This document shows positions 31,656-50,521 of a stretch of DNA of 64,000 nt, piece by piece (the stretch's first letter is position 1; each line of letters starts with the position of its first letter). The position numbers were made by a program, and so were the translations under genes. Source of the stretch: Clostridia bacterium (GTDB lineage: Bacteria > Bacillota > Clostridia > TANB77 > CAG-465); the NCBI GenBank assembly GCA_017626395.1, contig JAGAIU010000055.1, positions 21,852 through 85,851 of the forward strand, given 5' to 3'. The notes under the pieces were generated by a model that searched no databases, had not been told where the DNA came from, and saw nothing but the letters and a program-made list of their open reading frames with translations.

Positions 31656-31687
31656 AAAAGTGTGATGTTTTATTTCATCACACTTTT
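31656..31687 (-). terminator. terminator overlapping stop of PEP-utilizer gene
   Basis: AAAAGTGTGATG/CATCACACTTTT inverted repeat. Confidence 0.7.
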
Positions 31688-34080
31688 ACTTCACCAGTAT
31701 CACCATTTACTATTATATTTTCACCATTTCTAATATTTTTAGTAGCATCTTTTAAACCAACTACACAAGGAATTCTATTTTCCCTTGCATTTATAGCTAA
31801 ATGGCAAAGCATTCCACCATATTCAGTTATTATCCCTGCTAAATCGCTAATATTAATTTTCTTAAATATTTCTTGATTCATATATTTAGTTACCAATATA
31901 TCTGACCTTCTAAGATTTTTTAAATCTTCTTTACTATTTACTATACAAGCTCTTCCACTTATTTTCCCAAAGCTTGCACCAATTCCTTTTAAATTTCTAC
32001 TATAGTCTATATTTATATATTGCTTCGAACATGGGAAAATATCATTTAAAGGTTGGTAGTTTCTAAATGAATTTAAATATATTCTATTTTTGCTTACCAT
32101 TTTCTTAATTTGATCTACATTTTCAGAATCGACTGGATTAATTATATACTTATATTCTAAATTAAAGATATCTTCTTCACTATCTATTATAAATTTAGAT
32201 TTATATATTTTACCTAACTCTATCATATATTTTCTTAATATATTTTGGGCCATTAAAATTAAATCTTTTAATGAATTTTTTCTTTTTATTAAATCACGTA
32301 TAAAATCTATATCTTTAAATATTCCTTTTACTTGCGATTTTTTTGCATTTTCTTTAATTTTATCTAAAGTCATCTCATAAACTTTATTTTGTTGTTTTAA
32401 TTTTCTTAGCGGATCGAATTTATCATCCAGCTCTAGTATATCTCTATACATTTTTATTACCCTAAGAATTTCTTCATCATATGCTTTATATATAATATCT
32501 GTTTCGTTAAATGAATGATATCCATATGTATCTATAAAATCTGTTAAGAAATCCTTAATTAATGGATTTTCTCTATCTTTTCTATATAGATAATATATTT
32601 CTGCATCTAAATTTGATTCAAAGAATTTTAATCTTTTCGCATCAGTTCTTATTCTTCTTGATGAATCCCACATATGTAAGGTTGGTCCATTCTCATATTT
32701 ATCATCTACACCTTCAAAAAGATTTTTAATTTCAGCTTTATTTAGTATCCCTTCTAAAGAATCATTTATATTTACTTGATACAAGAAATTTATATAACTT
32801 TGCCATGTATATATACTTTTTATATCATATAACATATTAATTGCTTTAATTAGGTTATCCATTAGTTGTTTTTCATTTTCCAATGTATTTAATTCTTGCC
32901 TTAAAGTACTTATTTCTTGAAGTTTAGCTGTTCTAAATTCTTCTATATTAACAAGTTGCTTTTTAACTAAATCCATTACATTTTTCTTTGCAAAAATGTT
33001 AATTTTCTTCTTACTACTTAAATTTTCCTTTCCATTATCTAAATAATCTATTTTAACATCAAGTAGCTCATCTATATTTCTTTCAACATATCCAGGTACA
33101 TTTTCTAATACTTTCTTTAACAATGTTAAATTCCAATATATTCTAGAAAATTTAAAATCTACAATAGGCTTTAATATTTCAGTATCATTCATTATTTTTA
33201 AAGCTTTTATAAAACTAATGGTTGTTGTATTGTATACTTTTTCATCTAACGACCACATAAATCTAGACTCTATTGGTGTGGTATTTGTAAATCTATGATA
33301 TACATCCTTGTTTTCTACTCTAGTGATTGGTCTTATTTGAAATATGTATAATTTTGAGTCATACACTCCAAATTCAACATCTATTGGAAATCCCACTTCT
33401 TGTTGTAAATTTAAAGATATATTAATTATTCTTTTTATTGAAGTTTCGCCAAGTAAATTTATTTTAGGTTCTTCAATATATTTTTCTTCTACCCAATCGT
33501 ATACAATTCTTTCTGGAACAGCTTTTCCGGTTACAACTTCTCCTGCTCCTTTAGAAAATTCAACTACTATTTGAGTATCTTTTCCGTTAGTTGGATTAAC
33601 TGTAAATAGTATTCCACTAACGTTACTTTCTATCATTTCTTGAACAATTACGTTCATTTCTATCTTACTTATATCTATTTTATTCTTTCTATAAAATTGT
33701 AAATTATCTTGACTATATAATGACAAGAAACAACTTTTAATTTTATCTTTTATACATTCTTTATCTGCTACTACATTTAAGAAGGTAACAAATCTACCCG
33801 CAAGAGATATGTTTCTACAATCCTCTATATTTGCACTACTTCTTATTGCATATTGTTTATCTTTAGGAAGAATAGATAATATTCTATCTACCAACTCATC
33901 TGGTATTTCTATTTTATCTATTGTTTCAAAATTTAATTTTTGTAGTTTTATAATATTTTTAAATTCTTCAAAATCGATTACTACACCTAAAGGTATATTA
34001 TATCCTTTAGATTTTAGAATAGATAAATATTTAGCTTTATTTCCACAGTTCTCTATAACTTTATCTCCTAATTTATACAT
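31678..34080 (-). CDS. PEP-synthase/rifampin-phosphotransferase-like dikinase (ATP-grasp + helical + His-swivel)
   Basis: GNKA, AIRSSANIED...SLAG, VIVQEMI, SGILFTVNP, DVEF, FQIRPIT; C-terminal TEYGGMLCHLAINARE..IPCVVG. Confidence 0.82.
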   Translation of the reverse strand: MYKLGDKVIENCGNKAKYLSILKSKGYNIPLGVVIDFEEFKNIIKLQKLNFETIDKIEIPDELVDRILSILPKDKQYAIRSSANIEDCRNISLAGRFVTFLNVVADKECIKDKIKSCFLSLYSQDNLQFYRKNKIDISKIEMNVIVQEMIESNVSGILFTVNPTNGKDTQIVVEFSKGAGEVVTGKAVPERIVYDWVEEKYIEEPKINLLGETSIKRIINISLNLQQEVGFPIDVEFGVYDSKLYIFQIRPITRVENKDVYHRFTNTTPIESRFMWSLDEKVYNTTTISFIKALKIMNDTEILKPIVDFKFSRIYWNLTLLKKVLENVPGYVERNIDELLDVKIDYLDNGKENLSSKKKINIFAKKNVMDLVKKQLVNIEEFRTAKLQEISTLRQELNTLENEKQLMDNLIKAINMLYDIKSIYTWQSYINFLYQVNINDSLEGILNKAEIKNLFEGVDDKYENGPTLHMWDSSRRIRTDAKRLKFFESNLDAEIYYLYRKDRENPLIKDFLTDFIDTYGYHSFNETDIIYKAYDEEILRVIKMYRDILELDDKFDPLRKLKQQNKVYEMTLDKIKENAKKSQVKGIFKDIDFIRDLIKRKNSLKDLILMAQNILRKYMIELGKIYKSKFIIDSEEDIFNLEYKYIINPVDSENVDQIKKMVSKNRIYLNSFRNYQPLNDIFPCSKQYINIDYSRNLKGIGASFGKISGRACIVNSKEDLKNLRRSDILVTKYMNQEIFKKINISDLAGIITEYGGMLCHLAINARENRIPCVVGLKDATKNIRNGENIIVNGDTGEVKV

Positions 34081-37105: not shown

Positions 37106-38593
37106 TCACCTACTTTTAGTTAAATTATTAGTAAGGATTTTTTGTCTTGTTTTATCTTTAGATATATTCATTCTCCCAAATAAATTCTTTTTAGCTTCTG
37201 TTAGATTAAATGGTGCTATTGGATAAGTAAAAGGCTTGCTATAACTTTTAGTATCAACTAAACTTATAATAAGTAAAATAGAAGCTATACCTATTCCTAT
37301 TATTCCACATAGACTTGAAAATAGCATAAATATTATTCGCCATTTTCTTAAAGCATTTAACATATTTATATCCGAAAACATAAGTCCAGATATTGTAGTA
37401 ATTGCTACTACTATAATCATAATTGGCGATACTATTCCAGCACTTACAGCTGCATCTCCAAGTATTAAAGCACCGACTATTGATAATGTATTCCCCGTTA
37501 CTTTATTTGCTCTTAAATCACTTTCTTTTAAAATTTCAAAAGCAAATATCATAAAAAGAGCTTCTATAAAAGCCGGAAAAGGGACACCTTCACGTTGAGC
37601 CGTAAAGGATCTTAAAAGTTGGCTTGGAATAGATTCTTGGTTAAATGTTGTTATTGCTAAATATAAAGCCGGAGTCATAATTGTAATAGCTAAAGAAATA
37701 TATCTTACTATTTTAGTTATAGTAACATTTTTAGATTTTTGGTATAAATCATCAACATTATTTATATGATCTTCAAAAAAAGCAGGTAGTATTAAAGCAA
37801 AAGGACTATTATCTACAAGTACTACTATTCTTCCTTGCAATAAATAATATGATACAATATCTGGCCTTTGAGTATTTATCGATATTGGGAAATCTGAATC
37901 GTTTTCTTCCTCTATAAACTCTTGAATATAATTTACATCTAGTATTCCATCTATATCTATATTTTGTATTTTGTTTTCCACATATTTAACAAGGTCTTTT
38001 TTAGCAATATCTGATACATACATTAAAGCTACTTTTGTTTTAGTTTTTCTTCCGACTTGTTGTTCCTTATATACCAAATCTTCACTTTTAATTCTATTAC
38101 GTATTAACCCTACATTCTTCATAATGTTTTCAACAAAAGAATCTTTTGAGCCTCTAATAGAATTTTCACTAGAAGGTTCACTTATACTTCTTGTAAGAGA
38201 TGCTTTAACTTCAACGGCATACACCGACAAATCATATATTATAATTGCAAAGCCAGAAAAAATATATTTAAAAATATCTTCTTTATCTATATCTAATTTC
38301 TTTATTTTATTGATTGAAAGCATATCTTCAAAATGGATTTTATCTTTATTTTCACCTAACTTTTTTAATATTTTCTCTTCTAAACTTATATCTTCTTCCT
38401 GCTCATCTTCTTTTCCATTATTTTTTATACATTCAACAATACTTCTAATAACAAAATTTGAAAGAAGATTAGAATCTGTCATAGCATCACTTGAAATTAA
38501 ATATATTTTTTCTCCTTCAATTTCAAGCTGTCTAAAATATACATCATCTAATTCTTCACACCTACTTTTTATATATTCTAAAATATTATTCAT
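37106..38593 (-). CDS. gerKA: spore germination protein GerA/KA
   Basis: RSISEP, RGSKDSFVE, TQRPD, VDNSP, REGVPFP, SIVGALILGDAAV. Confidence 0.92.
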   Translation of the reverse strand: MNNILEYIKSRCEELDDVYFRQLEIEGEKIYLISSDAMTDSNLLSNFVIRSIVECIKNNGKEDEQEEDISLEEKILKKLGENKDKIHFEDMLSINKIKKLDIDKEDIFKYIFSGFAIIIYDLSVYAVEVKASLTRSISEPSSENSIRGSKDSFVENIMKNVGLIRNRIKSEDLVYKEQQVGRKTKTKVALMYVSDIAKKDLVKYVENKIQNIDIDGILDVNYIQEFIEEENDSDFPISINTQRPDIVSYYLLQGRIVVLVDNSPFALILPAFFEDHINNVDDLYQKSKNVTITKIVRYISLAITIMTPALYLAITTFNQESIPSQLLRSFTAQREGVPFPAFIEALFMIFAFEILKESDLRANKVTGNTLSIVGALILGDAAVSAGIVSPIMIIVVAITTISGLMFSDINMLNALRKWRIIFMLFSSLCGIIGIGIASILLIISLVDTKSYSKPFTYPIAPFNLTEAKKNLFGRMNISKDKTRQKILTNNLTKSR

Positions 38594-39545: not shown

Positions 39546-39622
39546 ATCTTGTCAAATATGGCAAAAACTTGAAAAAACGGTCAAATTGTGCTATAATATT
39601 CGCTACGAAAGGTGGTGCACTT

Positions 39623-40321
39623 ATGAATGCAAAAAGAAGATTTTCTTGTGCGTTCGAGGCAGCTACAATTGTGTGCTGTTTGACAGGGGTTTTGTCTAAT
39701 CTTTTAAGAACGTCATCTATTGAGAGTATGTTGTCGTTTTATACAACACAAAGTAACTTATTTGTACTTGCGTTCTACCTAGGAAGTGTCATAATTAAAC
39801 ACTTTAAAACAGATTGGGAAACAACCAATTTATACTATTTCCTAAAAGGAGCTACAGTAATGGTAATTATGCTTACTTTTATTGTATATGTCATATCGCT
39901 ACAACCTCTAAGTTTTGCAATGGACGTAAAGACTTCTTCTGGTAACATATTCAGATTCTCTAACCTATTTGTTCACTTCATTACACCTATAATGGTGCTG
40001 CTAGATTATCTGTTATGTGATGAAAAAGGGCATTTTAAGATGCGATATCCTTTTTTATGGTATTGGTTCCCAGCTGTTTATCCAATCTATGTATATACTT
40101 ATTCCTCCATGGGAGGTAGATTCTTTAGTGTAGGTGGATCTAAAAAGTATGCATATTTCTTTTTAGACGTAGACAAAATCGGGATGTTTGGAGTTATCAA
40201 ATACATTATGATTATTAGTCTATGTTTTCTATTTTTATGTTATATTTTAGTGTTTATAGACAAATCACTTGCAAAGCGCCAAGAAAAGAGATCATCCAAA
40301 CAAAAGAGCGGCTCAATCTGA
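39623..40321 (+). CDS. Pr6Pr/FAR-17a-like membrane protein
   Basis: FYTTQSN, VHFITPIMVLLDY, YAYFFLD; promoter TTGAAA-N17-TATAAT at 39569-39597. Confidence 0.78.
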   Translation: MNAKRRFSCAFEAATIVCCLTGVLSNLLRTSSIESMLSFYTTQSNLFVLAFYLGSVIIKHFKTDWETTNLYYFLKGATVMVIMLTFIVYVISLQPLSFAMDVKTSSGNIFRFSNLFVHFITPIMVLLDYLLCDEKGHFKMRYPFLWYWFPAVYPIYVYTYSSMGGRFFSVGGSKKYAYFFLDVDKIGMFGVIKYIMIISLCFLFLCYILVFIDKSLAKRQEKRSSKQKSGSI

Positions 40322-40351
40322 GTCGCTCTGATTTTTTTATTTTTATACTTA

Positions 40352-41503
40352 TTACATTGCCTCTTTAAACAATTTAATAAAGTCTTCTTTTGTTACTTCT
40401 CTTGGATTTCCAGGCATACAAGCATCAGCCATAGCTTTATCTGCAAGCATATCTAAATCTTCTTCTTTTCCACCAACTTCGCTAACAGTTTGTGTTACAC
40501 CTACTTTTCTAGATAACTCTACAATCATATCAACAAAAGTATCTATAACTCGTTCTTTAGACATATCTTTTGCATCTACATCTAAAGCAATTAAGATTTC
40601 TCTAAATCTTTCGTAACATACTTCACCATTAAATTTCATAACAGTTGGAAGTAATATAGCATTTGCTATACCATGTGGTGTATCATATACAGCACCAAGT
40701 TGATGAGCCATTGAGTGAACTATTCCAAGTCCAACATTTGAGAATCCCATACCAGCTATATATTGTGCAAGCCCCATTTTATCTATTGCTTCTTCATCTT
40801 TTTCATTTACAGCTGCTGGTAAATATTTAAATATTAATTTGATAGCTTCCATATGGAACATATCTGACATAGTATTATGTCCTTTTGTAATATATCCTTC
40901 AACTGCATGAGTTAAAGCATCCATTCCAGTTGCTGCTGCTAAAGATTTAGGCATAGAAGCCATAAGTTCTGTATCAACAATTGCTACAATTGGAATATCA
41001 TGTGGATCAACACATACCATTTTTACTTCTCTATCTTCGTCAGTAATAACATAGTTTATTGTTACTTCTGCAGCAGTACCTGCTGTTGTTGGTAGAGCTA
41101 TAATTGGTAGCCCTTTATTTTTAGTATTAGATAATCCTTCTAAAGATACTATGTCTTCATTTTCTGGATTAGTCATTATTATTGAAATTGCTTTTGCAGT
41201 ATCAATACTAGATCCTCCACCTACTGCAACAATTAAATCAGCTTGTGCTTTTTTACATGCTTCTAAGCCATCCCAAACATTTCTTTTTGTTGGATTAGGC
41301 TTTACATCTGAAAATACTTCATATGCAATTCCTTCTTTATCTAGTAGTTCTGTAATTTTTGTAGTTACTCCTACTTCAAATAATGATTTATCTGTTACTA
41401 CTAAAACTTTATTATATCCTCTTGTTTTAACTTCATCTACAAGAACTTCTCTTGCACCTTTACCAAAATATGATGTTTCATTTAATACGAATTTTGTTGC
41501 CAC
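40352..41503 (-). CDS. fucO: lactaldehyde reductase / Fe-dependent alcohol dehydrogenase
   Basis: FVLNETSYFG, GGGSSID, PTTAGT, GMDALTHAVE, HSMAH, HGIAN; GTG start with AGGAGG SD. Confidence 0.9.
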   Translation of the reverse strand: MATKFVLNETSYFGKGAREVLVDEVKTRGYNKVLVVTDKSLFEVGVTTKITELLDKEGIAYEVFSDVKPNPTKRNVWDGLEACKKAQADLIVAVGGGSSIDTAKAISIIMTNPENEDIVSLEGLSNTKNKGLPIIALPTTAGTAAEVTINYVITDEDREVKMVCVDPHDIPIVAIVDTELMASMPKSLAAATGMDALTHAVEGYITKGHNTMSDMFHMEAIKLIFKYLPAAVNEKDEEAIDKMGLAQYIAGMGFSNVGLGIVHSMAHQLGAVYDTPHGIANAILLPTVMKFNGEVCYERFREILIALDVDAKDMSKERVIDTFVDMIVELSRKVGVTQTVSEVGGKEEDLDMLADKAMADACMPGNPREVTKEDFIKLFKEAM

Positions 41504-41545: not shown

Positions 41546-42997
41546 TTATAATATATTTTTTAATACAATTGTTTTAATTTTAGAAACTTCTTCTAATGTT
41601 GTAGCAACACCTTCGTTGCCTATACCACTATTTTTCCAGCCACCAAATGGCATTTCGAAGCTTCTATAGAAACTTGCTCCATTTATTATTGCACCGCCAC
41701 ATTCTAATTTAGCAGCTACTTGCATTCCTAGTTTGTAATCTTTAGTGATTACACAACCACATAGACCGTATGAAGATTGGTTAGCTATTTCTATTGCTTC
41801 TTCAACAGTATCAAATCCAATTACAGGAATTACTGGTCCAAATATTTCCATATCTTTAGCTACATCCATATCTTTTGTAACGTTATCTAAAATAGTTGGT
41901 CCATAGAAAGCAGAATATCTCTTTCCACCACAAACAAGTTTTGCGCCTTGTTCAAGTGTTTTATTAACATACTCTTCTACTCTTTTTGCAGCAGCTATGT
42001 TAATTAGTGGACCCATATCTGTATCAAAGCTTGATGGATCACCAACTTTAAGATTTGCTATTACATCTTTCATTCTATTTATAAATTCTTTCTTTCTAGA
42101 ATTATGAATTAAGAAACGTTTACTTGCACAACATACTTGTCCACCATTGTATAGTCTTCCCCAAGTAGCTTCTTTAACTGCAAGATTCATATCTCCATCT
42201 TCTAGAAGGATAAACGCATCATTTCCACCAAGTTCAAGTAATACATGAGTTAAATTTTGTGAACATGTTGCCATAGTTTGTTTTCCTGCTGCTGTGCTTC
42301 CTGTTAAAGATACACAGTGTACTCCAGGATGTCTAGCTAAAGCTTGTCCACATGTTGGACCATCTCCTGTTAATACTTGAATTGCACCTGCTGGAACACC
42401 AGCTTTAATCATAAGTTTAACATACTCTATTAGAGTAAGTGGGTTATAATTTGATGGTTTAACAATTACAGCATTTCCCATAATTAATGCTGAAGGAACT
42501 TTTTGGCAGAACAAATCACTTGGGAAGTTAAATGGTATTATTGCAGCTATTACACCTAAAGGTTCTCTAGTTGTAATTTGCATACATTTTTCTTGCCCTG
42601 GTTCTGCATCTCCTATTAAACTTTCACCATATAAGTGTTTAGCTTTTTCAACATAACCATAAACACCTGCTCTAACGTTTGCTATTTCACCAATTGCTTC
42701 TTTTATAGGTTTACCTGTTTCGCTAGATAGAAGCCATGCAAGATCATCTGCATTTTCTTCAACTAAATCCACAAATTTTAATAATATTCTTCCTCTTTCA
42801 TGCATTGGTGTTGCTGCCCATTTCTTTTGCTCAATTCGAGCTACTTTAACAGCTTCATCTACATCGGCATCTGAACAATTTGGAACTTTTGCTATTATTT
42901 CTTGAGTAGCAGGGTTATCTACCTCAATATATTTTCCATCTGCAGCATCTTTCCATTCGTAGCCTATTAGATTTTTAGGATTACCCTGTGGAGCTTT
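41546..42997 (-). CDS. aldehyde dehydrogenase (lactaldehyde dehydrogenase-like); frame open up to the FIST TGA, no in-frame start for first 64 codons
   Basis: KNLIGYEW...EVDNPATQE...DVDEAV...W lies upstream of track ATG 42805; PFNFP, KPS, TGST, LELGGND, GQVCC, EIFGP, PFGG. Confidence 0.88.
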   Translation of the reverse strand, partial: KAPQGNPKNLIGYEWKDAADGKYIEVDNPATQEIIAKVPNCSDADVDEAVKVARIEQKKWAATPMHERGRILLKFVDLVEENADDLAWLLSSETGKPIKEAIGEIANVRAGVYGYVEKAKHLYGESLIGDAEPGQEKCMQITTREPLGVIAAIIPFNFPSDLFCQKVPSALIMGNAVIVKPSNYNPLTLIEYVKLMIKAGVPAGAIQVLTGDGPTCGQALARHPGVHCVSLTGSTAAGKQTMATCSQNLTHVLLELGGNDAFILLEDGDMNLAVKEATWGRLYNGGQVCCASKRFLIHNSRKKEFINRMKDVIANLKVGDPSSFDTDMGPLINIAAAKRVEEYVNKTLEQGAKLVCGGKRYSAFYGPTILDNVTKDMDVAKDMEIFGPVIPVIGFDTVEEAIEIANQSSYGLCGCVITKDYKLGMQVAAKLECGGAIINGASFYRSFEMPFGGWKNSGIGNEGVATTLEEVSKIKTIVLKNIL

Positions 42998-44164
42998 TCA
43001 TTTACCAAGACCAGTAAATGATAACATTAATCCTCCGCAAGTATTTCTATCATTATTATTTGAACCATACTCACCAAATGTGAATATTGTCATAAATGGT
43101 ATATCTCCTGCTTCGTCTTTCAATCTCTTAGCAACTTCATCTATTCTATTACCAATTCCAAGTTTTCTTCCTCCACAGTGAACAAGTAAGTATGCTCCTA
43201 CACCATTAGGTAATTTTTCTTTTACTGCTTTCATTGTATCAGTAGTAGAAGTAATAAGTTCATCTACTGAACCTTCCATTTGAACTACTGCTGTACTTTC
43301 AGCCAAGTGGTTACCTATGTTCATAGATAAATCGTCATTTCCAGCCATTGGATGACGGATTGCAACTAAATCTCCAAGTCTATCTTTAACACCAAGTGGT
43401 GCAAGAATAGTTTCAACTAAAAGATTTCCACCCATTAAGTCTTCTACCTTTTTACCAGTCCATTTAGCATATTGCTCTATAGCTGGCATTCCATTTATTT
43501 CTGCTAATTGTCTTTTTCCATTTACTTTAGTTATTACGCCAACATTTTTAGTCTCACGATATGCACCAGTATATACATTTGATACAGGTTTATCTGTATA
43601 GAAGAATGCTACTGCACATCCATCTGCAAATATAACGTCATCTGCATAAATTGACCATTCACCAGATACAGTATTATCTGCTGCTGAGCCTCCAAACATC
43701 GGTACTCTTCCTATTACATCTTCAATTCCTTTTAAGTAATCTTCTTCTTCTTTTGGAGAAGCTACCATATAGAAATATGAAGGTGCGCAAGTTTTACCAG
43801 CATTTTTCATTGCTTCTTGTGCAATTTTTCTACCAGTTTCTCTTGCATCTTTATCAAATGCACTTCCTGCAACTCCTACACTCATTGCACTATCAGATAA
43901 AGCCATAACTCCAACAAATCCATGATCTGAAGTTATATACCCATCTGGTACAATAATACCGCCACTTGAAGTACATCCAACTACAGGGATATCACCTAAG
44001 GCTTCTTTTGCTCCTTCTAATACTTCTTCAACATTATTATCTGCAGAAGTATATAATAGAGCTACTTTTGTTTTTGTTAAGTTTTCTACAGCTTTTTTAG
44101 CAGCTTCTTTACCAGCTTCTTTGCTAGATTTAGCTGTACTCCAACCAACATTTGATTTTAACAT
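42998..44164 (-). CDS. FIST_N/FIST_C domain protein
   Basis: PVVGCTSSG, PMFGGSAAD, EINGMPA, HCGGR, FTFGEYG; start ATG 44164 with GGGGGAG SD. Confidence 0.88.
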   Translation of the reverse strand: MLKSNVGWSTAKSSKEAGKEAAKKAVENLTKTKVALLYTSADNNVEEVLEGAKEALGDIPVVGCTSSGGIIVPDGYITSDHGFVGVMALSDSAMSVGVAGSAFDKDARETGRKIAQEAMKNAGKTCAPSYFYMVASPKEEEDYLKGIEDVIGRVPMFGGSAADNTVSGEWSIYADDVIFADGCAVAFFYTDKPVSNVYTGAYRETKNVGVITKVNGKRQLAEINGMPAIEQYAKWTGKKVEDLMGGNLLVETILAPLGVKDRLGDLVAIRHPMAGNDDLSMNIGNHLAESTAVVQMEGSVDELITSTTDTMKAVKEKLPNGVGAYLLVHCGGRKLGIGNRIDEVAKRLKDEAGDIPFMTIFTFGEYGSNNNDRNTCGGLMLSFTGLGK

Positions 44165-44310
44165 ACAATCTCCCCCTTCGTAAAACATAGTTTACAATTT
44201 AATTTTATCAAGTAGAAAAACATTATTCAATCTATTGTAATTAGATTTCACATTATTTTCAATTAAATTTATTGATTTTTTCAAAAAAATGTACACAGAT
44301 TTATCTAGTG

Positions 44311-46756: not shown

Positions 46757-49700
46757 TTAGTTTCTTTTCATTTTTTTTGCTGTTCTAACTATTAATCCTA
46801 GTGATACTAGAGCTACCATTACATATGCAGCTACTGCAATATCTCCAGTTGGAACGTTTGTGAAATCTACTTCATAAACAGCACCATCTTCGTCGATTGT
46901 TACTTCGAATACTGTTGCATCTAATTCGTATCCTTCAGCAGCTTCTGTTTCTTCAACATAGTATACACCATATCTTAAATCTTCAGCTTTGAAGTATCCA
47001 TTTTCATCGCTCATTCCTTCTTCTACTAAATTTCCTAGTTCGTCAGTTATAGCAAATTTACATCCAGGTACTGGTTCTGCTGTTTCAGCATCTGTTTTGT
47101 AAACTACGATTGTTCCTTTTTTGTAAACAACTTCTACTACATCTTCAACTGGTTCGTTTTCTAGATATAGTTCAGTATCTTCTGGAAGTACGTATTGATC
47201 TGCTAAATCTTCAACAACTCTTACATATCTACCAGCTCTTATTCCTTCGAATACAACTGTTCCTTCTTCATCTGTTGCAGCTTCATAAGCTACTTCATTT
47301 GTTTCAGGATCTATTAATAATACTGTAGCATCTTCTACTACAACTTTGTCTTCGTCGATAACTTCTACAGTTAAATCAACTTTTGTACGAACGTCTTGTA
47401 ATACTAATTCAGCTTCTTGAGCTACTGTTGTAACTTCGAATTGATATGCTTTTTCATCTAAATCATAGTATTTAGGAGCAACTGTTTCTCTTACAGCATA
47501 TGTTCCATAAGGAAGTCCTTCTAAAGTTATTTCTCCATTTTCATCTGTTGTACGAACAACTGGTACTTTTTCTCCATCTACTTTTTCTAGTAATGGGAAG
47601 AATTTACCACTGTTACCCATATATAATACTTCGTATTCAGCACCAGCAAGTCTTGTTACTGGAGTAGTTTTTTCAACATCTCCTAAAAGACCACCTAGAA
47701 CACCTTCTGCAAAGTCTTCTATTTTAGAAAGAAGTGAATGTCTTTCTATTTCTGGTAATGAAACTTCTTCAATTTTTGTTAATGTAAATGTAGTTACTTT
47801 TTTAGCTTGATTTACAATTGTTTCAACAGCGATATCAAATACTTTATCTGTAGTATTTGCAGGTACTGCATTGATTTCATATTTTTTATCACTTACAACA
47901 TAGTTTTCATTAGTTTCAAGTTCTTTTGCATAGAATTTACCTGTTGGTAATTCAGAATTTAATGTAGCTTTTCCATTCATATCCATTCTTACAACATCTA
48001 CTAATGTATCTGCAGGGATTTTTACTTCTCCTTTAGCATTTTTGATGTCTTCAGCTGCATATATTCCAACAACAACGTCTAGGTATGCATCTTCTCTAGC
48101 AAGACCCATAACATCATCTTCGTTTTCTCTGTAGAAGCTTAAGTCTTTAAATTCTTTTGTTAATTCTACTTCATAAGCTTGTTTATCTAATGTATAAGCT
48201 TTATTTACTGCATATTCAAGAATGTTTTGTCCTTTATATGTTAGTAATAAATCTTGTTTTTCTGTATTTAATACATATCCTTCTGGAGCAGTTACTTGTT
48301 CAATTGTGTATGAACCTAAGTATAATTTAGCTGTTGCTTGTCCATTAGCATCTGTTGTTAATGTTAATGTTTCACCAGCAGCCATTCTTACTGTTCCATC
48401 TAAAGTTTTGATATCTTCTTTAGCTGTTACTTTATAAACAACTCCAGAGATAACACTTCCACCGAATACTGGACGATTAATTGTTAATTTTCCGTCAGCT
48501 TCGCTAGTAGTTCCTGTTAATATTTGTCCTGTAGTTTTTACAGTTAGGTTTACTTTTTGTGGCATGTTTTTAACAACTGCTACAACCATATCTTTTTCAT
48601 AGTCGCCAACTTCATTAGTTTCAACTTTGAAAGTTCCAGCTACAACATTTTCAGTTGCAGATTGGTTATAATATCCTTCTGGAGCTACAATTTCATAGAT
48701 TTTGTATTCTCCATATGGAAGCATCTCAGGCATTACTAAGAATCCTTGAGCATCTGTTTTGTATGTGTATAAAGTTTCTTCATATGGATACATTACTTTT
48801 TGTACTACTGTTTGGTTGTTTGAATCAACAACTCTAAATTCAGTATTAGCTGCTGGAATTAATTTACCAGTTTCAGCATCTTGTTTTTCTATTTTAATGT
48901 ATCTTTGAGCAACTTCTGTGTTAACTAATTTTGAATAAATATAAGTATCTTCAGAATTAATCAATATTGGCATTGGATCCATATAATCTAATTCTGGTTT
49001 AACTTTTTCTATTTCAGTACAAGTGTATTGACCATAAGGTATATCAGTGAAATCTGCATAACCTTTATCATCAACTACAGTTTCATATGATTGATTTGGA
49101 TCTGAATCTAAAGTCAATTTTAATTTTGAACCTACAGCTGGGTCTTTAGTTGTGCTTCCACTTAAATCACTTACTGAAACAATCATTCTGAATCCACCAT
49201 AGATTACATTGTCTGTAGAAGTAACTGTTGTTACTTTTTGTCCGTTAGCTTCTGTTTTAGCTGCTGAAGCTAAAGCTGTTTTAACTTGTGTATCTATTTT
49301 ACATCCAGCTGGTGCTGTTAATTCTTTTACATAGTAATCTTTTAATTCTAATGGATCAGAAACTGCAACACCTGAAGCATCAGTTGTAACTTCTTGTACT
49401 AATTTTGTACAATTTTGGTCTTCGTATATTCCATATACTGCACCTGCAACTGTTGCATCACCAGTTCTAGAGTTTGTTGCACTAGTTCCTAGTGATTTAG
49501 TTACTTTTACTCTTAAAGCATTAGTATAGAAACTTACATATGTAACAGTATCAACATTTTGTCTGTTAGCTAAGTATACTAATTTTTCTCCAGATGATGT
49601 TTGAACATATTGTGGTACATAGAATCCTCTATTTACAGATTTGTATACAGGGATACAAATAGGTGCTGCTGAAGTTCCTACTTGTTCTGTAGCAAAGAAT

Positions 49701-50521
49701 GTTATTTGAGAACCATTTTTGCTATATTCTATTCCAGAATGTCCATCAACTGTTAAATTGATTCCTGCAACTACGTCAATTGCATTAACATCATTTAATG
49801 TAACTTCATATCTTCCTGTTGCTTCATTCCAAGTCATTTCAACTGGATTAGCATTAGCTTCTGTTTGTGATGCATATGTATATGATGGGTTTGATAAAGC
49901 TTGATTTACAGAATTTCTAATATAATAGTATTCTGATAATGCATTTCCTGATAGGTTAGCATTAACGATAGCATTTTCATCTGCTGTTCCTAAAACTCCA
50001 GCATTAGCCATCCATATGTACATTTGTGTAGCATAAGAAGCACTCTTTAAATAATCTGTGATAGCAGTTTGATCTGCAGCTTGAGCTGAACCTAATGTAG
50101 CATTGCTGAATGCTAAGGCTAGACCAATTCTGTTATCTACGGCACTACCATTTCCAACGCCAACTCCTACAACTTCTTCTCTATTGTTTGAAGCAGTAGC
50201 ATTATAGTTTACACTATATGCATTCCAATATACTCCTCCTGCATTATTCTTTATAGAATAAGAGTAAACTGGGTTTTTAGCTGCACCAAGAACAGAGTCA
50301 TTTGTTCTAAAGCCAGTTGTGAAAAGGTAAACTTCGTTTTCATAAGCACTTGCTGATGGTTCGTCCCCATCTTCTATAGCTGCAAGTTGAGAAGCTATAA
50401 TTGTGCTTATTTTGATTTGTTCTTTGTTAGGCATTGTAGCTGCTTTTACATTAGTAGTAACCATTGATACAGCTACCATTAATACGAAAGCAAATACATA
50501 TCTAAGCTTACTTATTTTCAT
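46757..50521 (-). CDS. sortase-anchored surface adhesin with SpaA/Cna-B-like repeats and TED-like N-domain
   Basis: Signal peptide, repeated K.D.ETG...GA.F/YG.Y...E..AP.GY, VPTGD + TM + basic tail. Confidence 0.88.
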   Translation of the reverse strand: MKISKLRYVFAFVLMVAVSMVTTNVKAATMPNKEQIKISTIIASQLAAIEDGDEPSASAYENEVYLFTTGFRTNDSVLGAAKNPVYSYSIKNNAGGVYWNAYSVNYNATASNNREEVVGVGVGNGSAVDNRIGLALAFSNATLGSAQAADQTAITDYLKSASYATQMYIWMANAGVLGTADENAIVNANLSGNALSEYYYIRNSVNQALSNPSYTYASQTEANANPVEMTWNEATGRYEVTLNDVNAIDVVAGINLTVDGHSGIEYSKNGSQITFFATEQVGTSAAPICIPVYKSVNRGFYVPQYVQTSSGEKLVYLANRQNVDTVTYVSFYTNALRVKVTKSLGTSATNSRTGDATVAGAVYGIYEDQNCTKLVQEVTTDASGVAVSDPLELKDYYVKELTAPAGCKIDTQVKTALASAAKTEANGQKVTTVTSTDNVIYGGFRMIVSVSDLSGSTTKDPAVGSKLKLTLDSDPNQSYETVVDDKGYADFTDIPYGQYTCTEIEKVKPELDYMDPMPILINSEDTYIYSKLVNTEVAQRYIKIEKQDAETGKLIPAANTEFRVVDSNNQTVVQKVMYPYEETLYTYKTDAQGFLVMPEMLPYGEYKIYEIVAPEGYYNQSATENVVAGTFKVETNEVGDYEKDMVVAVVKNMPQKVNLTVKTTGQILTGTTSEADGKLTINRPVFGGSVISGVVYKVTAKEDIKTLDGTVRMAAGETLTLTTDANGQATAKLYLGSYTIEQVTAPEGYVLNTEKQDLLLTYKGQNILEYAVNKAYTLDKQAYEVELTKEFKDLSFYRENEDDVMGLAREDAYLDVVVGIYAAEDIKNAKGEVKIPADTLVDVVRMDMNGKATLNSELPTGKFYAKELETNENYVVSDKKYEINAVPANTTDKVFDIAVETIVNQAKKVTTFTLTKIEEVSLPEIERHSLLSKIEDFAEGVLGGLLGDVEKTTPVTRLAGAEYEVLYMGNSGKFFPLLEKVDGEKVPVVRTTDENGEITLEGLPYGTYAVRETVAPKYYDLDEKAYQFEVTTVAQEAELVLQDVRTKVDLTVEVIDEDKVVVEDATVLLIDPETNEVAYEAATDEEGTVVFEGIRAGRYVRVVEDLADQYVLPEDTELYLENEPVEDVVEVVYKKGTIVVYKTDAETAEPVPGCKFAITDELGNLVEEGMSDENGYFKAEDLRYGVYYVEETEAAEGYELDATVFEVTIDEDGAVYEVDFTNVPTGDIAVAAYVMVALVSLGLIVRTAKKMKRN

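Follow-up and report, generated by a model that had tools for sequence, protein, structure and literature searches.

In a 64,000-nucleotide (nt) stretch of a Clostridia bacterium genome (the window), a gene for a FIST-domain protein is followed in the same reading frame, across a single TGA codon, by an aldehyde dehydrogenase (ALDH) gene without a start codon of its own. Comparison with related loci argues that a conserved, programmed readthrough of this UGA quite probably makes a FIST–linker–ALDH fusion, and that the window's clade depends on it for ALDH. Most ribosomes would terminate at the UGA and release free FIST, and a minority would insert a residue, most likely Trp, and pass through the linker to give the covalent fusion. 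Decoding would likely fall to the genome's one tRNA-Trp(CCA), whose anticodon stem has 4 bp and whose position 24 is A. Most relatives would additionally yield free ALDH from a Shine–Dalgarno (SD) sequence and an ATG or GTG embedded where the linker ends. The linker of the window's clade would have come down to 7 codons and its internal start would have been lost, leaving readthrough as the only source of ALDH. The ribosomal event itself, the inserted residue, the efficiency, and the role of the tRNA are what we infer here.

On the minus strand, the junction reads ...GGT AAA TGA AAA GCT CCA CAG GGT AAT CCT AAA AAT CTA ATA GGC TAC GAA TGG. The FIST stop (TGA, 43000-42998) is in frame with the ALDH, and 483 codons are open behind it until TAA (41548-41546). 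The Pfam families FIST_N (4.4e-33) and FIST_C (1.3e-22) match before the TGA and Aldedh (1.6e-152) matches after it. The Aldedh profile is covered over positions 1-461 of 461, and its position 1 corresponds to residue 15 after the TGA; an ALDH starting at ATG 42805, where the mechanical open reading frame (ORF) begins, would therefore lose about 50 domain residues. The 64 codons that follow the TGA contain no ATG, GTG, or TTG, and none of the Ile codons at positions 11, 24, 34, 35, and 55 is preceded by an SD-like string of at least 4 nt. The neighboring genes have strong SDs (FIST, AGGGGGAG with ATG 44164; FucO, AGGAGG with GTG 41503). An earlier description made from the letters alone (the sequence-only reading) had reported the in-frame TGA, the 64 codons without start or SD, and the loss of the conserved N-terminus in the ORF call, and the sequence is exactly as it described. 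Throughout the genome, adjacent long frames that share a reading frame are split by TAA in 40 cases, by TAG in 27, and by TGA in 2, and FIST–ALDH is the sole such pair whose downstream frame has no start within 18 codons.

The genome holding the window (G000) is a 1.99-Mb assembly with 27.7% GC. The sequence-only reading had allowed for an assembly error at the junction. Contigs of four runs from four different studies cover positions 42800-43200, all with the TGA unchanged and without indel; one of these independent contigs carries 8 substitutions elsewhere and none in 42960-43069. Together with the recurrence of the junction in nine species, these contigs rule out an assembly error at the TGA. 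Across the genus, 14 of 50 genomes encode the ALDH at E <= 1e-150, and nine of the 14, including G000, have the same junction, GGT AAA TGA A(A/G)A GCT CCA CAG GGT AAT CC(T/A) AAA AAT. Four further FIST–ALDH loci (L009, L010, L014, and L015) have an ordinary intergenic SD and ATG behind a FIST stop that is TAA or TAG, and at one locus (L016) the ALDH has no FIST upstream.

Among the nine species of the clade, 70.6% of third codon positions are variable. The fractions of variable sites at codon positions 1, 2, and 3 are 0.25/0.11/0.71 in FIST, 0.11/0.19/0.55 in the 64 start-less codons, and 0.21/0.09/0.73 in the remaining ALDH, a pattern that indicates purifying selection on all three alike. This bears on the simplest alternative, namely that the ALDH of the clade is untranslated, or translated only from Met-65, and is heading for loss. 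A gene with neither start nor SD would fit such decay. However, the whole frame is open in nine species, strong purifying selection extends over the 64 codons before Met-65, and the catalytic motifs ELGGN and VCCA are intact, so we regard decay as extremely improbable, as the sequence-only reading had argued from the motifs.

The wider family carries the argument further. A search with the ALDH N-terminus, restricted to one genome per species, found 383 relatives. The top 80 were retained and 79 of these loci examined, L095 being dropped for want of upstream DNA. The kept relatives are all uncultured gut Clostridia, e.g. Clostridium sp. CAG:273. At 78 of the 79 loci, the first in-frame stop upstream of the ALDH is the FIST TGA (...LMLSFTAFGK-TGA), and the spacer behind it is open in the FIST frame. 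The spacers range from 7 to 80 codons, with 28 different lengths and several unrelated sequence families, and outside the window's clade each ends in a strong SD, AAGGAGG, followed by ATG or GTG. Among distinct spacers that are 25 codons or longer, frame 0 is open in 52 of 52, frame +1 in none, and frame +2 in one, where the spacer composition predicts 0.083 stops per codon. Six of six FIST–ALDH junctions on metagenome contigs also have a TGA with an in-frame open spacer. In 70 of 70 distinct junction strings the TGA is followed by A, while the residue that follows varies (R, I, M, and T). Where no in-frame ALDH follows, the FIST gene stops at TAA or TAG (the four ordinary genus loci named above, and L148, a metagenome locus with TAA).

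The spacers also evolve as coding sequence. In a family of 38-codon spacers, pairwise differences at codon positions 1, 2, and 3 number 155, 200, and 310, and single-base codon changes comprise 143 synonymous and 150 non-synonymous ones. Near-identical ALDHs differ in linker length, for example 45 versus 12 codons, but always in frame. Judged from these comparisons, the linker is under selection at the protein level, i.e. is translated. The conserved TGA and the zero-frame open spacers support the first of three mechanisms put forward in the sequence-only reading, in which UGA readthrough would give a FIST–ALDH protein beside free FIST, and the comparative data agree with its description of the site as a recoding locus that is neither a lesion nor a code change. 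That the in-frame TGA is kept far outside this species, and that the tRNA-Trp is unusual, was beyond the reach of a single stretch of letters.

Many long linkers share the peptide R-x-G-x-K-P-Q...Y-x-C...G...V-C-K...N-K-E-G with two invariant Cys residues, which suggests a small folded module rather than a passive spacer. A two-Cys motif is also retained in the 38-codon family. The first residues of the 7-codon linker in the window's clade (R-A...P-Q) are common to the long linkers of relatives. Because it begins as they do, we read it as a shortened linker that has lost the SD and start. The third mechanism of the sequence-only reading had an 18-nt insertion interrupting an ancestral ATGAAAAAT start; the insertion does not stand, and the 7 codons are better described as what is left of a longer translated linker.

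No sense-codon version of the fusion was found. Among proteins of 484-1540 aa, none of the seven FIST-containing hits is a FIST–ALDH fusion, and a 127-residue junction query against 1.84 billion representatives gave no FIST–ALDH protein of fused length in the best 150 of 702 matches. Two candidates, P0008 and P0009, were rejected as unrelated repeat proteins. Sense fusions of another type (P0003; 779-780 aa, in a cluster of 584 members) have an iron-dependent alcohol dehydrogenase (Fe-ADH) at the N-terminus and FIST at the C-terminus, and none of this type was found in 201 genomes of the window's order.

TGA is otherwise a normal stop codon in this organism. Among 1142 ORFs of at least 200 aa in G000, 796 end in TAA, 276 in TAG, and 70 in TGA, the rarest of the three. 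The 70 TGA-ended ORFs are followed by a median of 4.5 further in-frame codons, and only FIST–ALDH has a long extension. In a closed relative (G066, 1,572,287 bp), 73 long ORFs end in TGA; one 112-codon extension after a TGA in that genome was rejected as an antisense low-complexity artefact. Within the window, TGA ends the ORFs 31678..34080(-), 37106..38593(-), and 39569..40321(+), the same genes that the sequence-only reading had cited (at 31678, 37106, and 40321) against a changed code. Release factor 2 (RF2, prfB; G000 contig C50, 62791-63846, L097) is intact with SPF and GGQ. The prfB gene of G000 is one uninterrupted frame with no in-frame stop and thus without the usual autoregulatory +1 frameshift.

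These data bear on whether the UGA could be decoded by a dedicated system, i.e. selenocysteine, a suppressor tRNA, or a partial code change. In some linker families hairpins lie 8-12 nt after the UGA, roughly the position of a bacterial selenocysteine insertion sequence, but the window's clade has no such hairpin. No SelA was found in G000 or five relatives, no tRNA-Sec scores above the Rfam cut-off in five genomes, and ARAGORN finds no UCA anticodon among 40 tRNAs of G000 or 36 of G066. A genome-wide code change (tables 4 and 25) was rejected on the 70 and 73 long ORFs that end in TGA, the intact RF2, and the lack of a UCA anticodon in G000 and G066; a selenoprotein gene was rejected since no SelA or tRNA-Sec was found in the genomes named and no structure is predicted at the window junction, in line with the earlier judgment that selenocysteine was unlikely. 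We give dedicated decoding as a whole next to no credence. The 36 tRNAs and the tmRNA that ARAGORN reports in G066 do not include a tRNA-Asn, and in G000 one tRNA is called as Asn with the anticodon ATT.

Both G000 and G066 have exactly one tRNA-Trp(CCA). In that of G000 (contig C77, 30107-30180), positions 27 and 43 are A and C, unpaired, which leaves a 4-bp anticodon stem with a 7-nt loop. Its D stem has the pair U11-A24, the state of the classical Hirsh UGA suppressor. Over the comparison loci (L108-L141), an unpaired 27:43 together with A24 is present in 30 of 30 genus members (29 A.C, and one U.C in which the lower pairs covary) and in four of four genomes of other genera with long-linker junctions. 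In a class-wide sample, 27:43 is paired in 19 of 22 (17 with G24), and A.C with A24 occurs in only three of 22; a FIST homologue (E <= 1e-30) was found in none of 60 other class-sample genomes. According to PMC13092985, a 4-bp stem is found in 8.9% of bacterial tRNA-Trp(CCA) genes and unpairing 27:43 in the E. coli tRNA increases UGA reporter readthrough about 2.5-fold, while the native role of such tRNAs in standard-code bacteria is left open there. By analogy with these E. coli data, the tRNA-Trp of our organism may read UGA, and is at most permissive. A broader picture, which we offer tentatively as one that may well prove wrong, is an order of reduced-genome gut Clostridia in which UGA is constitutively leaky owing to their only tRNA-Trp, with its 4-bp stem and Hirsh-type A24; the leak would have been domesticated at a single site, where it controls the stoichiometry of a sensor–enzyme fusion, FIST tethered to a lactaldehyde-branch ALDH, with readthrough becoming the sole route to this otherwise ordinary enzyme in one clade.

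Some junctions have putative stimulatory structures. When the UGA and 57 nt were folded for 69 distinct junctions, z was below -2 in 13. A 12-locus linker sub-family has two small hairpins starting 8 nt after the UGA, which are 98.3% paired and show compensatory changes in three of 10 pairs versus none in slid controls; the residues encoded by the two arms covary as well, e.g. S-T...V-D versus P-A...A-D. Parts of the family thus appear to have stimulatory structures that the window's clade lacks. An AU-rich upstream hairpin that would hold the stop (UCAUUUACU/GGUAAAUGA) was rejected as a conserved element: none of the changes in 50 distinct strings is compensatory, and each introduces a mismatch.

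The window's clade has an overlapping mini-ORF, on which the second mechanism of the sequence-only reading was built. A clade-specific +1 frameshift would start at the AUG that overlaps the stop (A-UGA), translate MK(S)STG, shift at GGG-UAA onto GGU, and enter the ALDH frame at AAU to make MKSSTG-NPKNLIGYEW.... The ATGA overlap and the mini-ORF (ATG AAR AGC TCC ACA GGG TAA) are present in all nine species and in L142 and L143, its sole variable base (A/G) is synonymous in the mini-ORF frame, and GGG is decoded in this genome only by tRNA-Gly(UCC). Synonymous sites near the junction are also unusually conserved: only four of 851 14-codon windows have at most one variable third position, and all four lie across the TGA. 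However, the AUG has no SD, and, unlike prfB, the site has no SD-like stimulator 3 nt before the shift codon. The first 11 nt of the mini-ORF (ATGAAGAGCTC) also occur in L025 and L050, where the ALDH has an ordinary start and the frame ends after 4 codons. The conserved block reaches 60 nt upstream of the AUG, where a +1 shift predicts nothing, and the shift leaves the family-wide open zero frame without account. The mini-ORF is conserved in the clade, but the shift is not needed, and we consider it unlikely.

Alternatively, the ALDH might be initiated alone at a non-canonical in-frame AUU or AUA at codon 11, maybe by 70S re-initiation after the UGA. AUU is a rare but known bacterial start, and codon 11 is AUU in seven species and AUA in two. 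No SD-like string precedes it, however, and the same Ile is residue 4-5 of the ordinary MKNLI... ALDHs of relatives, so the protein itself explains its conservation. Such a start also gives no reason why the preceding 7 codons, or the long linkers elsewhere, stay open in frame. We consider it very unlikely. None of the rivals, in fact, accounts for the family-wide open zero frame.

Several observations weigh against programmed readthrough or parts of it. First, L076 is the only one of the 79 loci in which FIST and ALDH are out of frame. Its linker (at about 2330-2400 of the locus) begins in the FIST frame and continues in the ALDH frame, pointing to a 1-nt indel within an A-rich run; the cause may lie in the assembly, or the fusion may truly have been lost. 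Second, P0046, a 58-aa fragment from a single 1295-nt contig with a RAKPQEEAFKRRDSM-type linker, has W at the TGA position. A TGG allele would explain this, as would a gene call made under table 4, and it is odd that a 1.3-kb contig yields so short a protein. Third, RF2 is intact, and genus members whose FIST/ALDH junction is ordinary, or that have no ALDH, also carry the unusual tRNA-Trp; since these members lack the readthrough architecture, the tRNA would be a permissive background and not the determinant. Fourth, signals are sparse: the window junction has no predicted RNA structure (z = 0.19), the wide family shows no extra synonymous conservation before the stop (0.78 versus 0.77 and 0.78), and we know of no bacterial readthrough motif to test against. 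The conserved block around the TGA in the clade could reflect another mechanism, e.g. the overlapping mini-ORF. Fifth, the loss of the start in the clade gives the direction of change that we favor, but the base of the ALDH tree, a quick tree, is not resolved. Finally, bacterial readthrough usually amounts to a few percent, at which ALDH would be scarce in the window's clade.

As to function, FIST scores 88.9 bits against the equivalog model of the haem NO sensor NosP, far below the cut-off of 450, and no sequence relative of it was found in PDB. The ALDH, with its full domain and catalytic Cys and Glu motifs, qualifies as an NAD(P)-dependent aldehyde dehydrogenase; its best model is lactaldehyde dehydrogenase (426 bits, below the cut-off of 650). 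FucO exceeds its NCBIfam equivalog cut-off (573 versus 537 bits). The operon probably encodes a distant NosP-like FIST, an ALDH, and a bona fide FucO, the latter two representing two fates of lactaldehyde. Since P0003-type Fe-ADH–FIST fusions exist elsewhere, a tethered FIST domain may by analogy regulate or scaffold aldehyde/alcohol dehydrogenases. Elsewhere in the window, the 1254-aa product of 46757-50521 (-), probably a surface protein, combines six SpaA-type prealbumin-fold repeats with a CarboxypepD_reg domain, and 39569-40321 (+) is a 250-aa ORF, convergent with fucO, with a TTG start, a TGA stop, and no Pfam family. The features of the locus and of the linker families are listed in Table 1.

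Table 1 Features of the FIST–ALDH–fucO locus in the window, and loci of two linker families
Feature	Position or loci	Strand	Basis and remarks
Promoter-like site of FIST, TTGAAA-17 nt-TACAAT	44234..44262	-	Consensus match only; 27 sites versus 20.6 expected in shuffles; weak
FIST SD AGGGGGAG, 5 nt before ATG 44164	44170..44177	-	Read from sequence
FIST gene, 388 codons and TGA; distant NosP-like sensor-type protein	42998..44164	-	Pfam, NosP model score
In-frame TGA, then A; proposed readthrough site	42998..43000	-	Sequence and comparison
7-codon linker KAPQGNP	42977..42997	-	RAPQGNP in other 8 species; putative remnant of relatives' 10-80-codon linkers
ALDH body, KNLIGYEW... to TAA, without own start codon or SD	41546..42976	-	Pfam, start scan
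Proposed readthrough product FIST-X-linker-ALDH, 872 residues	41546..44164	-	Frame and comparison
Block with unusually few synonymous changes, centered on TGA	42978..43063	-	9-species clade
Overlapping out-of-frame mini-ORF ATG AAA AGC TCC ACA GGG TAA	42981..43001	-	Clade-conserved
FucO, Fe-dependent lactaldehyde reductase, own SD AGGAGG and GTG; last operon gene	40352..41503	-	Pfam Fe-ADH, NCBIfam
Terminator-like inverted repeat just past fucO	40305..40329	+	1 found versus 1.3 expected; weak
Linkers with two-Cys peptide	L034, L044, L048, L049, L053, L055, L061-L068, L071-L075, L079, L081, L082, L084, L086, L091
Hairpin sub-family	L027, L030, L035, L040, L042, L043, L046, L052, L057-L059, L078		9-44 nt after TGA

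We found no paper that treats the FIST domain together with aldehyde dehydrogenase, and, at the level of titles and abstracts, no account of the FIST–ALDH junction in the literature on bacterial programmed readthrough. Readthrough itself is known; what appears to be new, on the comparative evidence, is a probable programmed readthrough that would join two cellular bacterial genes and be obligatory in one clade. If correct, it would provide a natural, testable example of bacterial readthrough, with dozens of linker variants as a ready mutational series. It would also give a physiological role to the 4-bp-stem tRNA-Trp in standard-code bacteria, a question left open by PMC13092985. The ALDH of the clade would then be mis-annotated by gene callers as truncated or absent, and FIST domains would be suggested to act tethered to aldehyde/alcohol dehydrogenases. 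Should UGA be leaky throughout the order, FIST–ALDH would be the first natural client of 4-bp-stem tRNAs in bacteria with the standard code, and a rare example of readthrough that is obligatory for a bacterial cell rather than for a virus.

Programmed readthrough is well documented in viruses and eukaryotes, and the coat-protein extension A1 of phage Q-beta arises by readthrough at UGA. The readthrough proposed here resembles these systems in that an in-frame leaky stop would give two products per message at a set ratio. The stop codon is retained, the frame behind it is maintained as coding sequence, and part of the FIST–ALDH family has a stem-loop about 8 nt after the stop. In contrast to viral and eukaryotic cases, FIST–ALDH lies in a bacterial chromosomal metabolic operon, the extension is a whole second enzyme that usually has its own start, and readthrough appears to be the sole route to ALDH in one clade. 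Synthetic gene fusions through a leaky stop reportedly set the ratio of free to fused product in a similar manner; they are engineered, unlike the natural FIST–ALDH.

The lineage's only tRNA-Trp, with its unpaired 27:43 and A24, is like those described in PMC13092985. That paper treats code reassignment, whereas in the present lineage TGA still terminates and one conserved site would exploit the leak; no mention of Clostridia was found in its main text, and the supplements may list the lineage. The in-frame stops in bacterial genes reported in PMC7918605 are likewise retained, with purifying selection on both sides, and are read as readthrough. Those are mostly recent nonsense substitutions within single genes, whereas FIST–ALDH is an order-wide two-gene junction with a variable linker. 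Selenocysteine recoding also places a UGA within a frame, and some relatives have downstream hairpins, but no SelA or tRNA-Sec was found and the FIST–ALDH site lies in a variable linker, not in an active site. The prfB +1 frameshift has its counterpart in the slippery-looking codon that adjoins a stop (GGG UAA) in the overlapping frame of the clade; however, FIST–ALDH has no upstream SD stimulator, the family signal is in the zero frame, and the prfB of G000 itself has no frameshift site. Finally, P0003-type fusions have the reverse order, with the alcohol dehydrogenase first and FIST last, and no stop codon, but as in the proposed FIST–ALDH product, they join FIST covalently to an oxidoreductase of aldehyde/alcohol metabolism.

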